From the NCBI RefSeq assembly GCF_000009705.1, contig NC_003272.1, positions 5,580,001-5,612,000 of the forward strand: a stretch of 32,000 bases of DNA. Direction: 5' to 3'. Position 1 is the first letter of the stretch. Every line of letters starts with the position of its first letter. The stretch comes from Nostoc sp. PCC 7120 = FACHB-418. GTDB lineage: Bacteria; Cyanobacteriota; Cyanobacteriia; Cyanobacteriales; Nostocaceae. This document shows, piece by piece, positions 8,502-30,476 of the stretch. The position numbers and the translations under genes were made by a program. Under the pieces are notes generated by a model. It worked only from the letters and a program-made list of their open reading frames with translations. It did not search any database and was not told the origin of the DNA.

Positions 8502-11500
8502 TTACACAGGAATCTCAATTACAAATTCAGTACCCTGTCCTAAGACGGAATTACAAGTTAACTGACCCTTGTGTTTTTCCACAACTACTTGATAGCTAAT
8601 AGATAATCCTAACCCCGTACCACTGCCTACTGGCTTAGTGGTGTAAAAGGGGTCAAAGATTTTCTGCTGAACTGCTTCAGTCATCCCAAGACCATTATCA
8701 GCAATGCGAATTTGTAGAGTGGTTGAGCCTTGTAGTGCCGTACAAATGCGAATAGTAGGATGATCAGTTGTCATGTTTTCCATGTCATTTGTTTTGCCAA
8801 CTGACAACTGACGACTGACGACTGACGACTCTAAAGCATCGATCGCATTACTGATAATATTCATAAATACTTGGTTGAGTTGACCCGCGTAACAATTCAC
8901 AAGCGGTAATTGTGCATATTCTTTGATGAGGGTAATTGCTGGACGTTCGCTATTCTCTTTAAGTCTGTGATGCAAAATCATCAAGGTGTTATCAATACCT
9001 TCATGAATATCTACAGGCTTCATGTCTGATTCATCTAGCCGAGAGAAATTGCGTAAACCCAGAACAATGTTGCGAATTCGTGAACTCCCAACTCTCATAG
9101 AGTTAAGAATTTTCGGCAAATCTTCTGCTAAGAAATCTATATCAATTTGTGCGGATTCTTCTGCGAGGATATCAGAATAATTAGGGCATTCTCTTTGATA
9201 GATAGCAACTAAATTGAGCAAATCTTGTACATAATCACTAGCATGAGTAATATTGCCATGAATAAAATTAATTGGGTTATTTATTTCATGGGCAATACCC
9301 GCTATCATTTGCCCCAAAGAGGACATTTTCTCGCTTTGAATTAATTGAGTTTGTGTACGTTGTAATTCTTGGAGAGTTTGTTGTAATCGGTGATTTTTGT
9401 GATTAAGTTCCTGTGTTCTAGCTTCTACTTTTTCTTCTAATCTATGATTGTAATCTTCTAGGTTTTGATTAGCTTGTGCTAAATTTTTGTAAAGCATAGC
9501 ATTCTCTATGGAGATTGCTGCTTGGGTAGTCAGGAGTTTTAGAACCTCTACGCGATCGCGTGTGAATGCTCCTGTCGTCAGATTATTCTCTAGATAAAGA
9601 ATGCCTAAGAATTTGCCCTGATTGATAATAGGTATGCACAATAGACTCTTGGGTTTCTCACGGAGAACATAGCGATCGCTAGCTAAGAAATCAACAGTCT
9701 GGGCATTATCGATAACGAAGATTTCTTCATTGCGTTTGACATACTTAATCAAGGTTAAAGGAAGCTCAAAACTAGAATCTAAACTGCTAGAAGGAAAAGA
9801 CGTGAAGACAGAAGCAGAATTTGTACTGTGACTTAATGTAGTAACTACTAATTCTGAAGTATCTGACGCAGTTAAAATCAACGCTGATTTAGAAGCGCCG
9901 GCATTCTCCATGACAACCTGCATCAAGGTGGAAAGTAATTGTTCCAACTCAATTTCCCCGGAGAGCGCTTGAGAAGCTTTAATGACAGACGCTAAATCTA
10001 AAGAGTCAGAAATACTGGTTTTAGAACCAATCACTGTCTGCTGGATACTCCGATCTTGTATAGATTGATAAGTAGCAGATGTAATTCTATCACTTGTTTG
10101 CAAGCTCAATTTTTCTTGTTGGAGTATGGGCGCAAGTAGTTGGGGATAATGTTTTGCTAGATCATCAACTTTTGCTTTTGCTCCCCAACGACTGTAACCA
10201 TAGTAAGCATCAGTGAGATAAGTTTGGGCTATTTTTTCCTTGCCCCATTGAAGATAGAATCTGGCAGCAAGTTCATTAGCTAGAGCCTCTTCATTGGTGT
10301 ATCCATTTTCTTTAGCAAGGGATATAGAGCGATCATAATAATCTATTGCTTCAAGATATTGTTCTTTTACACGACATTGTTCAGCCTCTACTAAATAAAA
10401 TTTATGTAGATAATTCATAGGAGCATAATTTGCCCAACATTTCATTTTTTGCTGATTAAATTCTACTGTCTTCAAAATATGCGTTTGTTTTGCTAATTTT
10501 TCTTCATGATAAACCGCTAAATTTGCTAGTGAATCGTACATATAGAAAAGAGGAATAACTAAATTCCCTACTCCATTATCCAAATACTTAAGTGCTAGAG
10601 ATGAATTCTCAATAGCTTGGGTAAATTCTCGGAAAAAGTAACAGAGATATAACTTATTAAAATATAGATATATCAAGCCTATGCCATCTTTGGCATTCTC
10701 TTGAATTGGCAGCAGATTTGTCTCGTTATATGCTTCACCAATTAAATCACAAGGATTTTCATTGGCTTGTATTAAATTCAAAACTGTTTGCCTATAAATA
10801 GCGTGCCAATTAAATACCCTTTCTTGCTTAATTTGTGATATTGCATGACTATAACTTGCCATTTCAGATGCTAATCCTGTTAGTTCTGTTCCTATAAAGT
10901 AGCAAGTATAAGAATGAGTATAGAGACAATAGCTGGCAAATTCCAAATCTCCTGTTTGTAACGCAGCAGAGTAACCTTCTAATAAAGGAGATAGTACTTC
11001 TTTGCTATGCTCTTTCCAATGGCTGATAGTAGCGTAGAAAATTTCTGTTATTTTAGCTTTCAATTCTTCAGCATTAAACTTATCTGTTAGTTGTAATGCC
11101 AGTTTGCCAAATTGATAACCAGATTCTATATCCCCTATAATGCCACAAAGCATTAATCCATAAAGTACATAAGCATAAGCTGATAAGGAAGTATTTCCAT
11201 ATTTAAGAGATAGTTCAACTTGTTTTAAAACAATCAGTGGAAACAGTTGAGGAGCAGCTTGATATACCAAACCAGATGCACTAGATAATATTTGAATTGC
11301 TGCTAGTGACTTTTTATCTCTCATTTCTGGGAGATTAATTAAATTTTCAATTACCTTCCCATTGAGATTTGTTGTAATCCCTGCCATTGCTAATTGAAAA
11401 TCTGACTGACTGGGATTTTCAGGAAACTCTAATCCCAGTAATTTTAAAAATGTCAATGCAATATTGACCGCTTCAATCGCCTGGTTTTGCGCTCCATAAG

Positions 11501-14204
11501 CCTGAATTTTGATTTCGTAAATTTTCACTTGTTCTAGTAGCGTTTTAGCTTGTACTAACACTACTTGAATCAAGGATTCCATCTTCTCAAAATTGCCAGC
11601 TAGGTAGGCTGCTTCTGCTGCTGTTTCATACAAAGCTAAAGTTAGTTGATATTGATTCTCCCAGCTATCGCCAGCCAGTAGTTCAATTCCCGTTGTTAAA
11701 TATTTAACTGCTGCTGTATAAGCTGTTGATGCTAAAGCTTTACGTCCAGCAATTAAATTCATCTGGGCTAATTCGTCACGCTTGCTTTGATGCGTGATTA
11801 ATTCCACTGCAACATTTAACTGATTTACCAGTTGAAAAACTTTGTCTTCTCTTTCGGCGACTGGGATTTTATCCAAAAGCAATAATCCAATCTTTAAGTG
11901 AATTTGCTTTCTGATTTTTTCCGGGATTAAGGAATAAGCAGCTTGTTGTACCCTGTCATGAATGAACTTGTATGTGGGAATTTGGAAATGATTTAATAGT
12001 GGTTTCTGAGCTTTCTTACTCCCAGGAATCTCTATTGAATTATTATTTTCTTGAAAGAATTTATAAAGCTCTGTCTGAGGTAAAATTATTCCCTCATGTA
12101 ATGCTGACCATAAGTCAGATGCTGTATCGATCACAGATTTCTCATGAGCGATCGCCAGAGTTTTTAAGTCAAACTCATTACCAATACAGGCTGCTAATTT
12201 TAATATGCTTTGTGTCATTGTGGGCAACTTTTCGATTTGCTGCCCCATAAATTCTACGACATCATCTGTTAGCGATAATGCTTGGATTTTAGCAATATCA
12301 TATTGCCAATAGGCAACATCAAAATTAAACTTAATTACGCCATCTTGATGTAAAGATTTAAGAAATTGAGTAGCAAAGAAAGGATTACCTTTCGTTTTTG
12401 CAAACACCATTTGACTGAGAGGAATAGTGATTTCCTCTTGGCAACGTAGGGTATCAGAAATTAAAGCATTTAAATTAGTTTGATTTAAAGGTGATAAGGA
12501 AATACGTGTAATATTACCCCGCACTTTTTCAATCTCTTTGATTGTTAAAAATAGTGGATGTGCTTGAGAAACTTCATTATCACGGTACGCACCAATGAGA
12601 AATAAGCTATGCTCTTCTTCATTATTCCTCTGTAAATCAGAACCCGTCCAAGGTTCTCCATCAAAAACAGGAATCCAGAGATTTTCTTTGGTTTCCGCAG
12701 GCGGCGTGGCAGGATTTTTATTCAGTAAGTTTGTTTGATTCATCAATAACTGGATGAATTTTAAAGAAGCCGTATCTGCCCATTGCAAATCATCCAGAAA
12801 AATCACCAAGGGATGGTGTTTACTACTAAATACTTGGATAAATCGTTGAAATAATAAGTTAAATCGATTTTGAGCAGCACTACCAGAAAGTTCACTAACC
12901 TCTGACTGCTGACCGATAATTTCTACAAGTTCAGGAATTACATCAATAATTACTTGAGCTTGTTCACCTAAAGCCGATAGAATTTTGCTTCGCCAAAGTT
13001 GAATCTGAGCATCGGTTTCTAAAAGTATTTGCCCAATTAAGTCCCTAAAAGCTTGCACTAAGCCTGATAAAGGAATATCTCGTTGAAACTGATCAAATTT
13101 TCCTTTAATAAAGTAACTTTGTTGGCGAACAATAGGCTTATGGACTTCGTTAACTACGGCAGTTTTACCGATGCCAGAGAAGCCAGTAACTAAGATCATT
13201 TCTGTCGTTCCTTTTGTTACCCTTTCAAAGGCAGCAAGTAAAGTTTCCACTTCACGTTGACGACCATAAAGCTTTTCGGGAATGAGAAAACGATCTGAGA
13301 CATCCTTCGTTGCTAACTCAAAGGATGTGATGTTACCTGTTTCCTGCCACTGTTTATGACAAATTTCCAAGTCGTATGCTAGTCCATAAGCACTCTGATA
13401 GCGGTCTTCGGCATTTTTTGCCATCAGCTTGCTGATAAGATCAGACAAAATGGTGGGAATCTTTGGGTTGATGTCGCTTGCTTTTGGTGGTTGCTTGGCA
13501 ATGTGGCAGTAAACTAACTCCATCGGCTCAATAGTCATGAAGGGTAACTGTCCGGTTAGGAGTTCAAAAAACGTGACACCCAAAGAATAGAAATCACTGC
13601 GGTAATCTATTCCCCTGTTCATCCTACCTGTTTGTTCAGGGGATAAATAAGCTAAAGTCCCTTCTAAAACATTGTGATTTGTGAGAACTTGGACTTCTCT
13701 TGGTAGGAGAGTAGCGATACTAAAGTCAGTAACTCTGATTTCCAGGGTAGTAGGGTTAATGAGGATGTTAGCAGGTTTAATATCTTTATGAATAATGCGA
13801 CTACGATGTAAACTTTCTAAAGTAGATGCGATCGCTATAGCAATGTGAAAAAATCTCTTGAGAACTGTGCCATATTCGTTGCCATCTTTGCTAATTTGCC
13901 CCCAGTCCTTCAGCGATAGGCCACCAAAGTCCTCCATCACTAAAGCATAGCTGTTACGATAAGTCTCTAAGCTCAGGGGTTTCACAATCCCTGGAATATC
14001 CAAATCTTTGGTGATTGTGTACTGATTACGAAACTGAGCAATTTCCTGGAAAGTTGGGTACTCATTCCGCATCAATTTGATAACTACAGGTTTTTGGTCT
14101 TGTTTTCTCAGACCTCGATAAACTATGGTTTTGCTACCAAAATAAAGTTGTTCTGTAATGCGATATCCAGAAAGGGGGAATATTGGATCAGACAATACTA
14201 ACAT
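8502..14204 (-). CDS. Multidomain sensor: Ser/Thr protein kinase + AAA/STAND-like ATPase + TPR-like repeats + GAF + histidine kinase (HstK-type dual kinase)
   Basis: 1900 aa. STK catalytic loop HKDIKPAN (about 13768..13791), plus DFS and SPEQ. Walker A VTGFSGIGKT (13161..13190) and Walker B VIFLDDLQWAD. A long helical repeat region follows, then GAF (about 9434..9914). H-box AHEINNP (9270..9293), N-box NIISNAIDAL, G1 DNGLGM and G2 GSGTGLGLSIS. The stop is 16 nt from the P450 stop (convergent). Confidence 0.93.
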   Translation of the reverse strand: MLVLSDPIFPLSGYRITEQLYFGSKTIVYRGLRKQDQKPVVIKLMRNEYPTFQEIAQFRNQYTITKDLDIPGIVKPLSLETYRNSYALVMEDFGGLSLKDWGQISKDGNEYGTVLKRFFHIAIAIASTLESLHRSRIIHKDIKPANILINPTTLEIRVTDFSIATLLPREVQVLTNHNVLEGTLAYLSPEQTGRMNRGIDYRSDFYSLGVTFFELLTGQLPFMTIEPMELVYCHIAKQPPKASDINPKIPTILSDLISKLMAKNAEDRYQSAYGLAYDLEICHKQWQETGNITSFELATKDVSDRFLIPEKLYGRQREVETLLAAFERVTKGTTEMILVTGFSGIGKTAVVNEVHKPIVRQQSYFIKGKFDQFQRDIPLSGLVQAFRDLIGQILLETDAQIQLWRSKILSALGEQAQVIIDVIPELVEIIGQQSEVSELSGSAAQNRFNLLFQRFIQVFSSKHHPLVIFLDDLQWADTASLKFIQLLMNQTNLLNKNPATPPAETKENLWIPVFDGEPWTGSDLQRNNEEEHSLFLIGAYRDNEVSQAHPLFLTIKEIEKVRGNITRISLSPLNQTNLNALISDTLRCQEEITIPLSQMVFAKTKGNPFFATQFLKSLHQDGVIKFNFDVAYWQYDIAKIQALSLTDDVVEFMGQQIEKLPTMTQSILKLAACIGNEFDLKTLAIAHEKSVIDTASDLWSALHEGIILPQTELYKFFQENNNSIEIPGSKKAQKPLLNHFQIPTYKFIHDRVQQAAYSLIPEKIRKQIHLKIGLLLLDKIPVAEREDKVFQLVNQLNVAVELITHQSKRDELAQMNLIAGRKALASTAYTAAVKYLTTGIELLAGDSWENQYQLTLALYETAAEAAYLAGNFEKMESLIQVVLVQAKTLLEQVKIYEIKIQAYGAQNQAIEAVNIALTFLKLLGLEFPENPSQSDFQLAMAGITTNLNGKVIENLINLPEMRDKKSLAAIQILSSASGLVYQAAPQLFPLIVLKQVELSLKYGNTSLSAYAYVLYGLMLCGIIGDIESGYQFGKLALQLTDKFNAEELKAKITEIFYATISHWKEHSKEVLSPLLEGYSAALQTGDLEFASYCLYTHSYTCYFIGTELTGLASEMASYSHAISQIKQERVFNWHAIYRQTVLNLIQANENPCDLIGEAYNETNLLPIQENAKDGIGLIYLYFNKLYLCYFFREFTQAIENSSLALKYLDNGVGNLVIPLFYMYDSLANLAVYHEEKLAKQTHILKTVEFNQQKMKCWANYAPMNYLHKFYLVEAEQCRVKEQYLEAIDYYDRSISLAKENGYTNEEALANELAARFYLQWGKEKIAQTYLTDAYYGYSRWGAKAKVDDLAKHYPQLLAPILQQEKLSLQTSDRITSATYQSIQDRSIQQTVIGSKTSISDSLDLASVIKASQALSGEIELEQLLSTLMQVVMENAGASKSALILTASDTSELVVTTLSHSTNSASVFTSFPSSSLDSSFELPLTLIKYVKRNEEIFVIDNAQTVDFLASDRYVLREKPKSLLCIPIINQGKFLGILYLENNLTTGAFTRDRVEVLKLLTTQAAISIENAMLYKNLAQANQNLEDYNHRLEEKVEARTQELNHKNHRLQQTLQELQRTQTQLIQSEKMSSLGQMIAGIAHEINNPINFIHGNITHASDYVQDLLNLVAIYQRECPNYSDILAEESAQIDIDFLAEDLPKILNSMRVGSSRIRNIVLGLRNFSRLDESDMKPVDIHEGIDNTLMILHHRLKENSERPAITLIKEYAQLPLVNCYAGQLNQVFMNIISNAIDALESSVVSRQLSVGKTNDMENMTTDHPTIRICTALQGSTTLQIRIADNGLGMTEAVQQKIFDPFYTTKPVGSGTGLGLSISYQVVVEKHKGQLTCNSVLGQGTEFVIEIPV
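8796..8830. repeat. Five tandem heptamers (GCCAACT GACAACT GACGACT x3) inside the kinase coding sequence
   Basis: Read directly from the sequence. On the coding strand AGTCGTC x3 AGTTGTC AGTTGGC encodes ESSVVSRQLSVGK, between the N-box and G1-box of the HATPase domain. Confidence 0.85.
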
Positions 14205-24792: not shown

Positions 24793-24820
24793 GTAAAATT
24801 ACCCAAATAAATATTATGAG

Positions 24821-24933
24821 TCCATAGTCAATAGTCCATAGTCAACAGTCCATAGTCAACAGTCCATAGTCAACAGTCCATAGTCAACAGTCCATAGTCA
24901 ACAGTCCATAGTCAACAGTCCATAGTCAACAGT
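24821..24933. repeat. Tandem 14-mer (two heptamers) TCCATAGTCAACAG x8 (first unit TCCATAGTCAATAG)
   Basis: Read directly from the sequence; the units are perfect apart from the first. They contain the CAACAGT STRR heptamer. Confidence 0.95.
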
Positions 24934-24980
24934 CTCCTTCTCCCCATTCCCCATTCCCCATTCCCCATTCCCCATTCCCC
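24934..24980. repeat. Tandem heptamer TCCCCAT x5 plus partial units (six C4 runs)
   Basis: ctccttc tccccat x5 tcccc. The complement is (GGGGAAT)n. It abuts a consensus TATAAT at 24984..24989. Confidence 0.95.
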
Positions 24981-25019: not shown

Positions 25020-25595
25020 GTGATTGCTATTTATCCTGGTAGCTTTGATCCGATCACTTTAGGACACCTCGATATTATTCAGCGTGGTAGCCGTTTGTTT
25101 GATCTGGTGATTGTCGCCGTCTTGCGAAATCCGAGTAAAGTACCATTATTTAGCGTACAGGAACGCCTAGAACAGATTCGTAGAACCACTAAGCATTTAC
25201 CAAACGTAGAAGCCGATGGTTTTGATGGTCTGACCGTTAATTATGCCCAACAGCGACAAGCACAGGTTTTATTACGGGGTTTACGGGCGATTTCTGATTT
25301 TGAGGTCGAGTTACAAATGGCCCATACTAATAAAACTCTTTCTACTCAAATTGAGACAGTTTTTTTAGCAACATCAAATGAGTATAGTTTTTTAAGTAGT
25401 AGTGTGGTAAAAGAGATTGCAAGATTTGGTGGTTCCGTCGATCATCTTGTCCCCCCACACATAGCTTTAGATATATACAAATGCTACAACCACAATTATC
25501 CAACGGCGAATCCAACTACAATGGAAATTACCCCCCCTCACCAGAATATGGCAACGGTAGCCCCCCAGGAGATACTCCAGGAACAGGAAACGTAG
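25020..25595 (+). CDS. coaD: Phosphopantetheine adenylyltransferase with an unusual ~30-aa C-terminal extension
   Basis: GTG start. [22 protein letters not shown] (T/HxGH nucleotidyltransferase motif) and [13 protein letters not shown]. Homology to the roughly 160-aa canonical CoaD ends near DIYKCY. The tail overlaps the next ORF. Confidence 0.9.
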
Positions 25596-26173
25596 ATATT
25601 CAGCAAGAACTCGATCGCCTAGAAGAAATTATTTTATCTAGCTTCCGCGTACCCTTAACGGGACGGACGCTGATAGATGAAGAAAAATTATTAGAACAGC
25701 TAGATTTTATTAGAGTTTCTTTACCATCGGTGTTTCAGGATGCAGCTGCAACCTTGGAACAAAAGCAAGAAATATTGCTAGAGGCGGAAGAATATGGACA
25801 GCAATTGGTCGATGCGGCTCAAGCTAAAAGGGCGCAAATCTTAGCTGAAAGCGATATTGTCAGACAGGCAAAACAAGAAGCTGACCAAATGCGCCGACAA
25901 GTGCAGCAAGAGTGTGAGGCAATGATGCAGGAAACCCTTGCAGAAATTGACCGCAAGCGGCGTGCTTGTCAGCAGGAGTTAGAAGAAATGCGACAAACTG
26001 CGATCGCTCAAGCTCAAGAAATCGAAAATGGTGCTGATGAATATGCTGATCATGTTCTGGAAGGGATCGAACAAGACCTAAAAGATATGTTACGAGTTAT
26101 TACAAATGGCAGGCAACAACTAAGAAGTGATAGTCAAGCACAGCGTAATTCTCACTCTCAGAAAAAGAAGTAA
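25481..26173 (+). CDS. Coiled-coil protein (ATP-synthase-b-like / Q,E,A-rich), start uncertain
   Basis: 230 aa. The low-complexity N-terminus ([30 protein letters not shown]) is followed by [37 protein letters not shown] and a long heptad-like Q/E/A/R region. The first 115 nt overlap coaD in another frame. Confidence 0.62.
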
Positions 26174-26259
26174 ACGCTGATACTTGAGTTACTGTAATAT
26201 TTTTTTAGCCCCATCTTGTGTTCGGGGTACAAATTGTAGGCTATTTCCAACGCCTTATT

Positions 26260-28104
26260 ATGCCTTATTATCAGGATCAGTTAAGCATCGCCACTGTTGA
26301 AGAAGCTCTGCAACAGTCATCAGTTGATGAGTTAAAAAAGTTAGCTGCTCTACTTAGTACAAATAATAAACCGACTCGCAAAGCTGAACTTGTGGCATTT
26401 ATTCAACGCCATCTAATCGGAGAAAATCTGCGCCAATTGTGGCGGGAATTAGATCAGCTACAACAAGCAGCAGTCGCTGAAACCGTTCATAGTCCAGACG
26501 GTTTTTTTAATGCAACTCGTTTTTATGCTAAATATTTGGCAGAGCCTAACTGGGGGACATCTGATCAATACGGCTACAAGCGTCAACCATCGGTGTTGTG
26601 TTTATTTATCTACGGTAAGAAGATTATCCCCAAGGATTTGCAAACACGCCTGCAAGCATTTGTTAGCAAACCAAAAGAAGTTTCCGTAAGCAGCGTTGAC
26701 AAGTGTCCGGAGTTTTTCCACATTACTTGGCGAGAATGGGACCATAAGACTGGTAAGCGGGTAGTTAAGGAAAAAGAAATTCCCATCCAGCAGTGTGAAA
26801 TGGAAACTGCGGCGCAACAAGATTTATTAGCAGTGCTGCGGTTGATTAATGGGGGGAAAGTTTCCGTAAGTGATAAAACTGGATTCCCCAGCACAGCGAG
26901 TATGAATGCGATCGCCTCCGTATTAACCGATGGTGATTATTATAATGATGATGAAACAGTTAATGCAGAAGAAAAAATCGGTTTTATTAAACCCTTCGCT
27001 TGGGCGCTACTAGTACAAGCTGGTGGCTTGGCTGAACTCTCCAACAAGCGGCTAACATTAACCAAAGCTGGACAAAAAGCCCTTACAGCCCCCGCCGCCG
27101 ATACCATCCGCACCATCTGGAAAAAGTGGTTGAAAAATAAGCTTTTAGACGAACTCCGGCGCATAGATAGCATCAAAGGGCAAACAGGCAAAGGTAAGCA
27201 AGGTTTAACCGCACCAGACAAGCGCCGCGAAGCCATAACACAAGCTTTAAAAGATTGTCCTGTAGGTTGTTGGATGACCACTGAAGAATTCTTTCGCTAT
27301 ATCCTCGCCAAAGGCTACGATTTTGAAGTGACTCGCAACCCTTGGAATTTATATATTAGCGAAGCCAATTACGGCAGCTTGGGCAATCTTGACGGTGACG
27401 ATTGGGCAATTCTCCAAGGCAGATATACCCTATGTCTACTATTTGAATATGCTGCCACTTTGGGCATGATCAATATCGCTTACGTTCATCCTAGTGGCGT
27501 TCGTCCTGATTACGGCGATTTATGGGGGACAGATGATTTGTTCTTTTTTAGTCGTTATGACGGTTTAGCTGCTTTGCAACTAACACCCTTAGGTGCATAC
27601 TGTCTGGGTGTTGATCATAATTACACTCCTCCCCCATTAGAGTTACGTTCTATATTCCGGGTGCTACCAAACTTAGAAATAGCTGCCACTGGAGAACCCT
27701 TAAAGCCGGTGGATACCCTGATGTTGGATGTTTATGCCCAAAAGATTTCTGATGCTGTGTGGCGCTTAGAAACAGCTAAGTTGTTGAGTGCAATGGAAGA
27801 AGGTTGTACTGTCACCCAATTAAAAGAATTTCTGCAAGCGCGGAGTGGTCACGAATTACCGGAGACTGTAAACCAATTTTTAGCTGATGTGGAGGCAAAA
27901 GGCAACAGTTTACGCGATCGCGGTCAAGCACGTCTGATTGAGTGTGCCGATACAGCCTTAGCTGTGTTAATTGCCAATGATTCTAGAACTAAAAAATTAT
28001 GTTTCCTCGCTGGAGAAAAGCATTTAGTTGTCCCGACTGAATCAGAAACTAAATTCCGCAATGCTGTGAAAAAGTTAGGCTACAGCATTCCTTTAGGGGG
28101 TTAG
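26260..28104 (+). CDS. XPB-associated protein; C-terminal XPB-N-terminal/p52(Tfb2)-like module (hypothetical)
   Basis: The track ORF starts at GTG 26218. I prefer ATG 26260 (MPYYQDQLSIATVEEAL...). I see no catalytic motif. The last ~140 aa (about 27685..28101) parallel the N-terminal domain of the downstream helicase (see findings). Confidence 0.72.
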   Translation: MPYYQDQLSIATVEEALQQSSVDELKKLAALLSTNNKPTRKAELVAFIQRHLIGENLRQLWRELDQLQQAAVAETVHSPDGFFNATRFYAKYLAEPNWGTSDQYGYKRQPSVLCLFIYGKKIIPKDLQTRLQAFVSKPKEVSVSSVDKCPEFFHITWREWDHKTGKRVVKEKEIPIQQCEMETAAQQDLLAVLRLINGGKVSVSDKTGFPSTASMNAIASVLTDGDYYNDDETVNAEEKIGFIKPFAWALLVQAGGLAELSNKRLTLTKAGQKALTAPAADTIRTIWKKWLKNKLLDELRRIDSIKGQTGKGKQGLTAPDKRREAITQALKDCPVGCWMTTEEFFRYILAKGYDFEVTRNPWNLYISEANYGSLGNLDGDDWAILQGRYTLCLLFEYAATLGMINIAYVHPSGVRPDYGDLWGTDDLFFFSRYDGLAALQLTPLGAYCLGVDHNYTPPPLELRSIFRVLPNLEIAATGEPLKPVDTLMLDVYAQKISDAVWRLETAKLLSAMEEGCTVTQLKEFLQARSGHELPETVNQFLADVEAKGNSLRDRGQARLIECADTALAVLIANDSRTKKLCFLAGEKHLVVPTESETKFRNAVKKLGYSIPLGG

Positions 28105-28130
28105 GGTAGCCAAAGTGATTTATATAGCTG

Positions 28131-28158
28131 TTGACAGTTGACGGTTGACGGTTGACAG
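28131..28158. repeat. STRR array TTGACAG TTGACGG TTGACGG TTGACAG
   Basis: Four tandem heptamers in the 171-bp spacer between the partner gene and the XPB helicase gene. Confidence 0.85.
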
Positions 28159-28275
28159 ACTTGAAAGTCTCGTGTTGTCAGGGTTTGATCTTGACTTGAT
28201 GTCCTAATCTATCTGGCTACGGCTATATTATCTACCATTTTTAATCATAAGCTTTACCTGAAGCTGACAAAATTC

Positions 28276-29967
28276 ATGTCCTATAACCCAGAAAATTCAT
28301 TGATAGTTCAAAGCGATCGCACCATACTACTAGAAGTGCATTCTCCCACAGCCGCTAAAGCCAGAGAAGCGATCGCTCCTTTCGCTGAACTAATCAAAAG
28401 TCCCGAACATATCCACACCTACCAAATTACACCCCTAAGTATTTGGAATGCACGGGCGGCGGGGATGCAGGTTGAGGCGATGGTAGCAGCTTTGCGTGAC
28501 TATGCTAAATATCCCATACCAGAAGCGGTGGCACAGGAAATTTCCACCTTGGGGGAGAGGTATGGATTAACAGTGATTGAACGTGATGAAGATAGTTTAC
28601 GCTTGCGGGTGAGCGATGTTGCCTTGGCAGAACTATTAGTGAGAGATAAACAAGTAGCGCCGTTACTAGGTAAACGACTTTCTGAGGTTTCTTTTCAAGT
28701 AGAAGCTGGTCTACGCGGTACGTTGAAACAGGCTTTGCTGGCTGTGGGTTATCCGGCGGAAGATATTGCCGGTTATGTGAGTGGGGATGCTTTATCTATC
28801 AAGTTGCGTGAGGAGACACGCACAGGTAAAAAATTTCTGCTGCGAGACTATCAACGTCAAGCAGCAGAAGCATTTTATCAGTCTGGAAGAGTACAAGGTG
28901 GGAGTGGTGTGATTGTGCTTCCCTGTGGTGCTGGTAAAACCATTGTCGGGATGAGTGCGATCGCTGCCGTCCAAGAGAATACACTTATACTAAGTACGAG
29001 TTTAACCTCTGTGAGGCAATGGCGACGAGAATTGTTAGATAAAACAGATTTACCAGAAGAGGCGATCGCTGAATACAGTGGAGAAGTAAAAAACACAGGG
29101 CCAATCACCCTCTCAACCTATCAAATTCTTACCTATCGTCCTAACCGCGAAGATGATTTTCCCCACTTTGACTTATTCAGCGCCCGTTCTTGGGGTTTAA
29201 TTATCTATGACGAAGTTCACCTCTTACCCGCCCCAGTTTTTCGCATCACGGCTGAACTGCAAGCACGCAGACGCTTAGGGTTAACAGCCACCCTCATCCG
29301 TGAAGATGGTAGAGAAGGCGATGTCTTTGCTCTGATCGGCCCAAAACGTTACGATGTACCTTGGCGAGAACTAGAAACAGAAGGCTTTATTGCTACCGCC
29401 AGTTGTACAGAAATTCGTGTATCCCAAGACGCAGAAAGGCAAATGACCTACGCTCTTGCACCCAGACGCAACCAGTTTCGGGTGGCGGCGGAAAATCCCC
29501 ACAAGGTACAAGTAGTTAAAGAGTTATTAGAGAAAGAGTCAGGACACCGCATCTTAATTATTGGTGAGTTTCTGGCTCAGTTAGAAACCCTTGCCAAAGT
29601 CACAGGACTACCCCTAATTACTGGCAAAACTCCTGAAAAAGAACGAGAACAGCTTTATCAAGCCTTTAGGGAGGGAAAACTAGGGGGATTAGTATTATCG
29701 AGAGTGGGTAACTTTGCCATTGATTTACCAGACGCAGACATCCTCATCCAAGTTTCAGGAAAATATGGTTCCCGCCAGGAAGAAGCGCAGCGTCTAGGTA
29801 GAGTACTGCGTCCTAAATCTGATGGTCGTCCCGCCCAATTTTATACTCTAGTATCTCTGCGTACCTGTGAAGAGGATTTTGCTCGTCATCGGCAGTTATT
29901 TTTAACAGAGCAAGGTTACAGTTATAATATTCAAATTGTGGATCAGTTTGAGAACAAATTGATCTGA
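28276..29967 (+). CDS. XPB/ERCC3/Ssl2-type SF2 DNA helicase/translocase
   Basis: 563 aa. N-terminal DRD-like domain, RDYQ, Walker A LPCGAGKT (GAGKT = 28927..28941), DEVH (29209..29220), the XPB-specific RED motif in GLTATLIREDG (29299..29307), and motif VI QRLGRVLR. Confidence 0.92.
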   Translation: MSYNPENSLIVQSDRTILLEVHSPTAAKAREAIAPFAELIKSPEHIHTYQITPLSIWNARAAGMQVEAMVAALRDYAKYPIPEAVAQEISTLGERYGLTVIERDEDSLRLRVSDVALAELLVRDKQVAPLLGKRLSEVSFQVEAGLRGTLKQALLAVGYPAEDIAGYVSGDALSIKLREETRTGKKFLLRDYQRQAAEAFYQSGRVQGGSGVIVLPCGAGKTIVGMSAIAAVQENTLILSTSLTSVRQWRRELLDKTDLPEEAIAEYSGEVKNTGPITLSTYQILTYRPNREDDFPHFDLFSARSWGLIIYDEVHLLPAPVFRITAELQARRRLGLTATLIREDGREGDVFALIGPKRYDVPWRELETEGFIATASCTEIRVSQDAERQMTYALAPRRNQFRVAAENPHKVQVVKELLEKESGHRILIIGEFLAQLETLAKVTGLPLITGKTPEKEREQLYQAFREGKLGGLVLSRVGNFAIDLPDADILIQVSGKYGSRQEEAQRLGRVLRPKSDGRPAQFYTLVSLRTCEEDFARHRQLFLTEQGYSYNIQIVDQFENKLI

Positions 29968-30476
29968 ATTTTGGTATCAACCAATTGATTATTAACTAAT
30001 AATCGGCTACCTGTAATCCAAGTTTGTTGAGGTTGAAATTGATAAATTCTCCGGGGAGAATCGTCTAGATAATCCGCAGCCGTTTTGAGAAGTGGTTTTC
30101 TGGCACGATTTGCTAGCAGAGGAAAAGCTTTTTCGGCTTGGTTTTGGTCTAACTCACAAGCTATACCTTGAAAATACAACCCTTCTGGACTACCCTCTGG
30201 GAAACTAGAATTATAAATAGCGATCGCTACTCGTCCATCATTGTGATAAATATTTTGTGAATGCTTAGAGGTAATAGCTGAAGACCAGTAAATATTCCAA
30301 CTGTCATCATAAGCAAAAAATACAGGCGACACCCAAGGAAAACCATCAACTGAGCAAGTGGATAGTGAGCAGTAAATATTATCGGCAATGATAGAATGCG
30401 CTTTACTTATAATTTCTATATTTTCGGCATCGATAGTATTCACCCATCCATTATCAGCAGTTGCGGTTTCCATCAT
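29943..30476 (-). CDS. Pyridoxamine 5'-phosphate oxidase-like (FMN-binding split-barrel) family protein
   Basis: 177 aa. CSLSTCSVDGFPWVSPVFFAYDDSWNIYWSS...RVAIAIY...GLYFQG fits the split-barrel strand pattern, though this is a weaker call. Its 3' end overlaps the XPB 3' end by 25 nt (convergent). Confidence 0.55.
   Translation of the reverse strand: MMETATADNGWVNTIDAENIEIISKAHSIIADNIYCSLSTCSVDGFPWVSPVFFAYDDSWNIYWSSAITSKHSQNIYHNDGRVAIAIYNSSFPEGSPEGLYFQGIACELDQNQAEKAFPLLANRARKPLLKTAADYLDDSPRRIYQFQPQQTWITGSRLLVNNQLVDTKIQINLFSN

Follow-up and report, generated by a model that had tools for sequence, protein, structure and literature searches.

A putative p52-like partner encoded upstream of an XPB-type helicase in Nostoc sp. 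PCC 7120 and other bacteria

XPB is the motor that opens DNA in eukaryotic transcription initiation and in nucleotide excision repair, and p52 is the protein that recruits and activates it. The textbook view, to our knowledge, is that bacteria have no p52-type partner for XPB. We have analyzed a stretch of 32,000 nucleotides of Nostoc sp. PCC 7120 = FACHB-418 (NC_003272.1, positions 5,580,001-5,612,000, forward strand; hereafter the window) in which a gene for an XPB-type helicase follows, on the same strand, a gene for a large protein that is here called the partner. An initial annotation of this DNA had read the two as an XPB helicase and a companion that ends in a p52-like module.

Within TFIIH (human GTF2H4/p52; yeast Tfb2 with Ssl2), the p52 clutch, residues 306-399, has the fold of the XPB N-terminal domain, and it pairs with that domain of XPB as a pseudo-symmetric dimer that recruits XPB to TFIIH (Greber et al., PMC6422496). 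An N-terminal domain of this type, Pfam family PF13625, is common to bacterial and eukaryotic XPB and absent from most archaeal XPB (PMC3353954). According to that 2012 study, bacteria have no p52 homologues, their XPB probably works outside any TFIIH-like complex, and XPB is present in 'few, if any' cyanobacteria. The XPB of Mycobacterium tuberculosis (Rv0861c) is a 3'-5' helicase and DNA-dependent ATPase. Like the Nostoc enzyme it consists of an N-terminal XPB domain and two RecA domains without the eukaryotic C-terminal extension, but it was studied alone, with no partner (PMC3353954). In the literature consulted, Rv0861c and the XPB of Kineococcus radiotolerans, which is cited there, are the only bacterial XPB proteins studied. 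In archaea, a prokaryotic XPB is likewise found beside a dedicated partner that modulates its ATPase, Bax1 (PMC7293015, PMC13024598). Bax1, however, is a nuclease that binds the thumb motif and the helicase domain 2 (HD2) of XPB, whereas the Nostoc partner has a module of the XPB N-terminal type and carries no Bax1/DUF790 or nuclease signature. Bax1/DUF790 had been named initially as the identity to be considered in place of p52; with no match in Pfam or NCBIfam, and with no nuclease among the structural matches, it was ruled out. Full-text literature searches, in which subscription-only papers were not covered, returned no description of a bacterial p52-like partner of XPB, and the initial impression that none had been characterised in a cyanobacterium agrees with this.

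Both open reading frames (ORFs) lie on the plus strand, at 26218..28104 (628 amino acids [aa], GTG start) and 28276..29967 (563 aa), and the 171 bp between them are as initially read. The upstream ORF is real and conserved, but its length had to be corrected: in an alignment, 13 homologues from other genomes all begin at MPYY, which corresponds to M15, and for this reason the true start is most likely the ATG at 26260, which gives a product of 614 aa. Residues of the partner are numbered below according to the 614-aa form unless the 628-aa form is stated.

By its profile and motif matches the downstream protein is a complete, motif-intact XPB with a eukaryote-type N-terminal domain. It scores 852.8 bits over aa 9-552 against the NCBIfam equivalog NF045503, 'DNA repair helicase XPB' (cutoff 610), and Pfam finds Helicase_C_3 (PF13625, aa 9-135, E-value [E] 1.1e-35), ResIII and ERCC3_RAD25_C (E 1.8e-42). 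The motifs from which an XPB/ERCC3 helicase had been recognised by eye are all present: RDYQ (aa 190), GAGKT (218), DEVH (312) and RED (342) in RecA1, which corresponds to ResIII (aa 187-341), and QRLGRVLR (505) in RecA2, which corresponds to ERCC3_RAD25_C (aa 366-552). Against sequences in the PDB the helicase matches yeast XPB with 304 bits, human XPB with 273 and archaeal XPB, which lacks the PF13625 domain, with 145. The human alignment starts at human residue 25 and spans aa 9-552 of the Nostoc protein, N-terminal domain included. On these bit scores the eukaryotic enzymes are much nearer to the Nostoc XPB than the archaeal one is.

The C-terminus of the partner resembles the N-terminus of the helicase well beyond chance, by Pfam as well as by hhalign. 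PF13625 matches partner aa 470-580 (484-594 in 628-aa numbering) with 35.4 bits, just over the gathering score of 34.2 (E 1.2e-8, or 1.3e-8 for the 628-aa form; positions 5-119 of the hidden Markov model [HMM]), and it matches 77 of the 78 members of the partner family, with a best E of 5e-11. When partner and XPB profiles built from alignments of the retrieved loci were compared by hhalign, partner aa 500-609 aligned with XPB aa 48-160 (94% probability, E 1e-7); VWRLETAKLLSAMEEGCTVTQLKEFL..LPETV of the partner fell opposite YQITPLSIWNARAAGMQVEAMV..IPEAV of XPB, the same pairing from which the parallel had been drawn by eye. The suggested likeness to the module of p52/Tfb2 holds as well: PF13625 matches residues 326-375 of human p52 (E 5.6e-6, HMM 21-70), and most p52 proteins of vertebrates carry it in their precomputed annotation. 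A single sequence model thus links the partner C-terminus to the p52 clutch and to the N-terminal domain of XPB, and on this evidence the partner module is homologous to the clutch. By analogy with TFIIH we propose that it is a docking surface for the N-terminal domain of XPB. At the level of the domain the link is already flagged by databases and hence is not new; family members are named 'helicase-associated domain-containing protein' or 'Helicase XPB/Ssl2 N-terminal domain-containing protein'. Rv0862c, the neighbour of Rv0861c, presumably carries the same domain. An entry in Table 2 of PMC7601679 may be a mycobacterial relative of the partner with a phenotype on record.

The likeness to p52 is probably not confined to this module. 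An AlphaFold2 (AF2) model of the full-length partner, built on 78 homologues, is confident, with a mean predicted local distance difference test score (pLDDT) of 86.7 and a predicted template modelling score (pTM) of 0.76. When it was compared by Foldseek with 350,542 PDB chains, ranks 1-19 were all p52/Tfb2, with E between 2.2e-9 and 7e-5 over about 620 aligned columns; these matches cover the partner as a whole and not just the end for which the likeness had been proposed. The top chains include human 8ebs_D and 6nmi_D, yeast 7o4i_2 and 7zs9_2, and the p52–p8 crystal structure of C. thermophilum, 6trs, and chain identities were confirmed by PDB sequence searches with human p52 and with the window XPB. 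XPB/Ssl2 chains rank after these, with about 160 columns and E of 5e-4 and weaker. The model displays the p52 type of domain order, with winged-helix-like domains at the N-terminal side followed by the clutch and a small C-terminal domain. As a check on whether the clutch alone drives the match, aa 1-455 were modelled separately, with the clutch left out (pLDDT 91.5, pTM 0.88). The six best PDB chains for this fragment are again all p52, aligned co-linearly over 450-460 columns, and 6tru, the crystal structure described as 'N-terminal half of p52', supplies four of them; they are followed by noise and by weak matches to MarR-type winged-helix proteins, with a probability of at most 0.3. On these models a p52-like architecture outside the C-terminal module is probable. 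We describe the partner as p52-like and do not file it, by sequence, as a member of the Tfb2 family.

The partner family has more than 2,400 matches in a 90%-clustered collection, and an exhaustive HMMER search gave 898 clusters at 50% identity (E<=1e-30). A scan of 185,579 genomes, one per species, with two peptide patterns recovered at least 460 loci; the analysis was carried out on the best 80. The expectation that the two genes would be found together elsewhere was borne out: XPB lies directly downstream of the partner on the same strand in 56 of these 80 loci, or 56 of the 73 with enough downstream DNA to judge (7 of the 24 others have too little). In 28 loci no more than 100 bp separate the two genes, and gaps of 8-15 bp are frequent; two annotated plasmids and a metagenome-assembled genome (MAG) have gaps of 1-5 bp. 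The pair is found in Cyanobacteria, in Competibacteraceae and other Gammaproteobacteria, in Deltaproteobacteria, in Thermodesulfobacteriota and in one Clostridia MAG. Pairwise identities of partner and XPB correlate with r = 0.96 over 46 loci, which indicates that the two genes travel together. No third conserved gene was found, either when all ORFs of the 80 loci were clustered or in the flanks of 20 distinct loci; the clusters that do recur are antisense ORFs inside the two genes or neighbours seen only in Microcoleus. In seven Nostocales relatives the order coaD–cc230–partner is kept, where cc230 is an ORF of 230 aa, and the identities of partner (75-81%) and XPB (85-92%) are in line with those of coaD (77-92%).

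Two loci of the scan stand apart. The Richelia sp. CSU_2_1 MAG (coverage about 6) contains an in-frame ORF, L066:4244-6991, that fuses partner aa 1-589 to XPB from aa 187 onward, without the last helix of the partner and the whole N-terminal region of XPB. The junction lies on a HIP1 palindrome, GCGATCGC, and the ORF may be a natural 'Rosetta-stone' deletion fusion or an assembly chimera. In Microcoleus sp. S13_B4 (L036) the partner is intact and there is no XPB within 6 kb, while in more than 20 other Microcoleus genomes XPB follows the partner after 180-450 bp; this looks like loss or relocation of XPB at the level of the strain.

Compared with the XPB–p52(–p8) arm of TFIIH, the Nostoc pair has an XPB with the same N-terminal domain and a partner with a clutch of the PF13625 type at its C-terminal side, predicted winged-helix-like domains N-terminal to it and a predicted fold that is closest to p52 among PDB chains; a small predicted beta-alpha-beta-beta-alpha unit at the end may correspond to the p8-like domain of p52. 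Unlike p52, the partner has no Tfb2 or Tfb2_C profile match. It exceeds p52 by about 150 aa and has an N-terminus of SAP-like type, a region with a beta-hairpin and an invariant loop rich in Gly and Lys. Genes for p8, p34, p44, p62 or XPD are not linked to the bacterial pair, so that there is nothing for the N-terminal winged-helix domain of the partner to bind as in TFIIH. The bacterial genes also differ in being encoded as an operon and spread horizontally, with some partners lacking XPB.

The reading that we prefer, with moderate confidence, is that the pair forms a minimal two-subunit XPB machine, a DNA translocase built like the XPB–p52 arm of TFIIH. The C-terminal module of the partner would pair beta-sheet to beta-sheet with the XPB N-terminal domain in a pseudo-symmetric heterodimer like that of p52 and XPB. 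In this way the partner would hold XPB and tune, probably stimulate, its DNA-dependent ATPase and double-strand translocase. Its N-terminal two thirds, with the SAP-like helices, the winged-helix-like domains and the Gly/Lys loop, may bind DNA or another factor and so direct XPB to the sites that it opens. No nuclease, toxin or other effector or enzymatic domain was found in either protein by Pfam, nor in the partner by structural matches, in accord with the initial remark that the partner shows no enzymatic motif; since neither protein encodes such an activity, the output would be DNA opening or remodelling that is handed to other enzymes. That the partner clamps and regulates XPB we infer from the published p52–XPB mechanism together with the evidence from module, fold and synteny. 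For the role of the pair in Nostoc we favour genome maintenance, either repair or the clearing of stalled complexes, because it is a stable chromosomal resident in a Nostocales genome; this is the least secure step of the proposal. New, as far as can be told, are the predicted p52-like fold of the partner over its full length, the conservation across phyla of an operon with a eukaryote-type XPB, and an ecology that is partly chromosomal and partly mobile. If the proposal is true, the pair would offer a simple two-protein system in which to dissect the regulation of XPB by a clutch, and in-vitro work on bacterial XPB would seem to have been carried out without its cofactor. The function of bacterial XPB becomes directly testable through the pair rather than through XPB alone. 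It would also bear on the origin of the TFIIH core, given that the Nostoc enzyme is nearer to the eukaryotic than to the archaeal XPB.

Several findings, given in this paragraph and the next, weigh against that reading. The profile match that had been expected for the partner was obtained with PF13625 (Helicase_C_3) but not with the p52 families: Pfam Tfb2 (PF03849) and Tfb2_C (PF18307) give no match to the window partner at E<=1, and over the 78 members neither is among the 25 most frequent Pfam families at E<=10. A comparison by hhalign of the partner family with p52 profiles, made of 2 and then 18 sequences (vertebrate p52 and yeast fragments), was not significant (probability <5%), and searches of PDB sequences with the partner and with a 78-sequence family profile gave nothing meaningful. 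The TM-scores of the full-length p52 matches are low, 0.29-0.35 when normalised by the query and 0.37-0.51 by the target, two 6trs chains excluded, and their root-mean-square deviation (rmsd) is about 20 Å. The p52 matches of the N-terminal fragment are weak (E 0.08-0.5, probability 0.21-0.95, with 5 of 6 at 0.6 or more), and this fragment has no PDB match at E<=1e-3. Such results could mean that the partner is not a true p52 homologue and that only the C-terminal PF13625 is shared, the likeness to TFIIH being convergent or partial. An XPB N-terminal domain might, for example, have been duplicated and fused to an unrelated bacterial scaffold of SAP and winged-helix type, a protein that could still bind XPB, and the full-length Foldseek matches would reflect the PF13625 module plus generic winged-helix folds. 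The extra length of the partner, with an N-terminus and a hairpin region that could not be mapped onto p52, is in keeping with this, as is the absence from bacteria of p34, p62 and p8, the ligands of the N- and C-terminal parts of p52 in TFIIH (PMC6422496). On the other side, the clutch-less fragment has only p52 among its six top chains out of 350,542, and ordinary winged-helix proteins score lower; the full-length E of 2e-9 is far better than that of the XPB chains, which match the clutch only, so that regions outside the clutch contribute to the p52 match. Low TM-scores are expected for a multi-domain protein with its domains placed differently, and the match to p52 is one of local structure and domain order, not of rigid superposition. 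The negative hhalign result is itself weak, because both of the profiles compared were shallow (effective number of sequences 2.7 and 1.9). We consider it doubtful, on balance, that the partner is unrelated to p52 outside its C-terminal module.

Other findings concern the coupling of the two genes and their role. Seventeen of the 73 informative loci have a partner without XPB, with at least 6 kb of sequence on each side. In the closest Nostoc relatives (L001, L002, L003, L006 and L007) the partner is parted from XPB by 1.1-5.3 kb of unrelated genes, which encode a 110-aa Ycf66-like membrane protein, a Uma2-family endonuclease, trypsin-like proteases with WD40 repeats and a Ser/Thr kinase; at L011 a PIN toxin gene, with a small ORF upstream of it, takes this place. 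Co-transcription is therefore not assured in Nostoc, and strict operon coupling appears relaxed in this clade. An actinobacterial subfamily of about 445 aa (L082, L092, L093 and L094; Rhodococcus, Saccharopolyspora and Streptosporangiaceae), which lacks the first ~170 residues, is not adjacent to XPB at three chromosomal loci and one plasmid locus, all in unrelated contexts. As to the role, the repair function is borrowed from eukaryotes, and LexA-box-like patterns number 6 in the window where 8 are expected, with none near the pair. The function of bacterial XPB was still called elusive in a 2026 review (PMC13024598).

A second alternative accepts the architecture of the preferred reading and differs from it in role alone. 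The pair would be a horizontally mobile conflict module, directed against phages, plasmids or other mobile elements, with the p52-like protein as the sensor or targeting factor for foreign DNA and the XPB motor as the part that acts on it, and the Nostocales copy would be domesticated or resident. Between distant phyla the partner retains 50-56% identity and XPB 62-80%, values that imply horizontal transfer, and the distribution, with at least 460 loci among all the species genomes scanned, is patchy. Intact pairs are found on plasmids of Acaryochloris and Gloeocapsopsis among BrnT/A toxin-antitoxin, RES, insertion sequence IS630 and integrase genes, and in a Deltaproteobacteria MAG the pair adjoins a type I restriction-modification (R-M) system and AbiEi/AbiEii. 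One partner without XPB lies directly upstream of Wadjet JetABC, another adjoins Hachiman HamAB and a further one is 21 bp downstream of a 1401-aa superfamily 1 (SF1) helicase (AAA_11/AAA_12), with an HNH_2 gene after it. Among 146 ORFs that flank 20 distinct loci the commonest families are integrase (3), DDE transposase (3), AbiEii (2), relaxase (2) and PIN (2); each of these is nevertheless present in just 2-3 of the 20 loci, and the counts have no background-rate control. Two-gene defence systems made of a helicase and an accessory protein, such as Hachiman HamAB, resemble the pair as compact mobile cassettes that are sometimes located in defence islands. Unlike them, the pair carries no nuclease or other effector domain, is unmatched in 50,697 phage records and includes a partner for which there is no PADLOC model (0 families of PADLOC-DB 2.0); XPB itself yields just partial, generic helicase-core matches to PbeA and others in that database. 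The window and its seven Nostocales relatives, moreover, are syntenic and of housekeeping context, with the pair evolving like its neighbours. We think it unlikely that conflict is what the pair serves. More broadly, and only tentatively, the XPB–p52 arm might be a widespread mobile two-gene module of bacteria, possibly for conflict or defence, which was source or sister of the eukaryotic pair and is not a eukaryotic invention; bacterial XPB would in that case have been studied for 15 years without an obligate cofactor.

The partners without XPB also include some near SNF2+SWIM helicases or a SWIM protein. One such partner has as its neighbour a protein in which a Cas-type 'DxTHG' motif was read from the sequence, without a Pfam match. 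Taken together with the Wadjet, Hachiman and SF1 cases above, these loci are L081 (a Cupriavidus taiwanensis plasmid), L085 (Polaromonas pPNAP01), L087 (Acidobacteriota), L017/L071/L061 and L073/L075. Their contexts suggest that conflict systems or helicases other than XPB may also make use of the p52-like scaffold.

Least probable is that the partner is a general DNA-binding, helicase-associated adaptor, independent of XPB or used with several helicases, whose adjacency to XPB here is functionally meaningless: its solitary occurrence in 17 of 73 loci and at the three chromosomal actinobacterial ones, its position at times beside SF1 or SNF2 helicases, its persistence without XPB in a Microcoleus strain with 20 or more sister strains that have both, and the inserted genes of the Nostoc relatives would fit such a view, but they are set against a fixed same-strand order in 56 loci of several phyla with stop and start codons overlapping or nearly so, the co-divergence of the two genes and a sole recognisable module of the type that binds XPB in TFIIH, and genomes with solitary partners may encode XPB elsewhere.

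The coordinates of the two genes and their parts are collected in Table 1. In the N-terminal region of the partner the SAP-like motif reads VDELKKLAALL..KPTRKAELVAFIQRHL. Pfam SAP matches the family weakly, in 4 of 78 members with a best E of 0.077, and in the model these helices are a possible DNA-binding element, for which no counterpart was noted in p52. After them, at aa 93-180, the model has a basic alpha/beta stretch that includes a long beta-hairpin. The winged-helix-like units that had been suspected in the middle of the protein are modelled as two domains; the segment KPFAWALLVQAGGLAELSNKRLTLTKAGQKAL, quoted in support of them at the time, falls in the first and is folded as a helix, a beta-hairpin wing and a second helix. 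CLLFEYAATLG and SRYDG are invariant motifs of this domain region. The most invariant stretch reads DE(L/F)RRI(D/E)xIKGQTGKGxRGLTA, with D297, E298, R301, G307, Q308 and G310 invariant over 78 loci, and is modelled as an exposed Gly/Lys-rich loop between the winged-helix-like domains, where pLDDT is lower. Its GQTGKGK was considered as a Walker A motif and rejected, because GK is not followed by S/T, K313 varies and the P-loop fold is missing. In structural terms the clutch-type module spans aa 466-550. The terminal unit, which aligns with XPB aa ~108-160, takes the position that the C-terminal p8-like domain has in p52. Foldseek matches of the partner to p8/TTDA are faint (2jnj and 1ydl, E about 1.5, probability 0.5-0.7, 68 columns), no small gene beside the pair is conserved as a candidate for p8, and the predicted correspondence of this unit to the p8-like domain is tentative.

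Table 1. Features of the partner–XPB locus in window coordinates
Feature	Coordinates	Strand	Basis
Partner gene, p52/Tfb2-like 'helicase-associated domain' protein, 614 aa	26260..28104	+	ORF; start by alignment
N-terminal helical region, aa 13-92, SAP-like helix-extended-helix (predicted)	26296..26535	+	AF2 secondary structure
Two winged-helix-like alpha/beta domains, aa 181-300 and 321-455 (predicted)	26800..27624	+	Fragment model, aa 1-455
Most invariant partner stretch, aa 297-318	27148..27213	+	Column counts over 78 loci
XPB-N-terminal-domain / p52-clutch-type module, PF13625, aa 470-580	27667..27999	+	Pfam, hhalign
Terminal beta-alpha-beta-beta-alpha unit, aa 557-605 (predicted)	27928..28074	+	AF2 secondary structure, hhalign
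Intergenic spacer, 171 bp, with heptamer array	28105..28275	.	Sequence, Tandem Repeats Finder (TRF), terminator scan
XPB/ERCC3-type superfamily 2 (SF2) helicase-translocase, 563 aa, eukaryote-like architecture	28276..29967	+	NCBIfam, Pfam, motifs
XPB N-terminal domain, PF13625, aa 9-135	28300..28680	+	Pfam
XPB motor, RecA1 and RecA2	28834..29931	+	Pfam, motifs
Terminator-like hairpin at the XPB stop codon, 12-pair stem then T-rich tract	29939..29966	.	Terminator scan

The spacer between the two genes contains a tandem heptamer, GTTGACA x 4.1 at 28130..28158. The heptamers had been said to make up much of the spacer, which overstates an array of 29 of the 171 bp. Further heptamer arrays are found in other spacers of the window, at 1563, 8800 and 24941 (1560-1590, 8800-8830 and 24941-24980). 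Because like arrays occupy these other spacers, the repeat is a genome-wide feature of the short tandemly repeated repetitive (STRR) type, and a regulatory element peculiar to the partner–XPB locus was ruled out; we take the spacer repeats of the window to be of the kind typical of heterocystous cyanobacteria. A tandem repeat tract at 24819-24934 is also intergenic, and one 14-mer x 8.3 is among the spacer repeats. The scan predicted no terminator-like site within the 171-bp spacer. At its other end XPB shares its last 25 bp with a PNPOx-like gene that runs towards it on the minus strand (29943..30476), and the hairpin at the XPB stop codon could be a terminator shared by these two genes.

The surroundings of the pair are housekeeping and there is no shift of composition at its locus in the window. 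Genes for an ArfB-type RF-1, PAP-fibrillin, a tetrapyrrole methylase, Lgt and CoaD are located upstream, and the PNPOx-like protein and DNA polymerase III delta' are encoded downstream of XPB. The CoaD-type ORF (25020-25595) has a C-terminal extension of about 55 aa that overlaps the start of the next ORF in another frame. The 230-aa ORF at 25481-26173, directly upstream of the partner, encodes a coiled-coil protein without a Pfam match and is kept in this position in 7 of 7 Nostocales relatives with 65-78% identity. Further away, at 8502-14204 on the minus strand, a signalling protein of 1900 aa combines a Ser/Thr kinase with an AAA_16 ATPase and with GAF, HisKA and HATPase_c domains.

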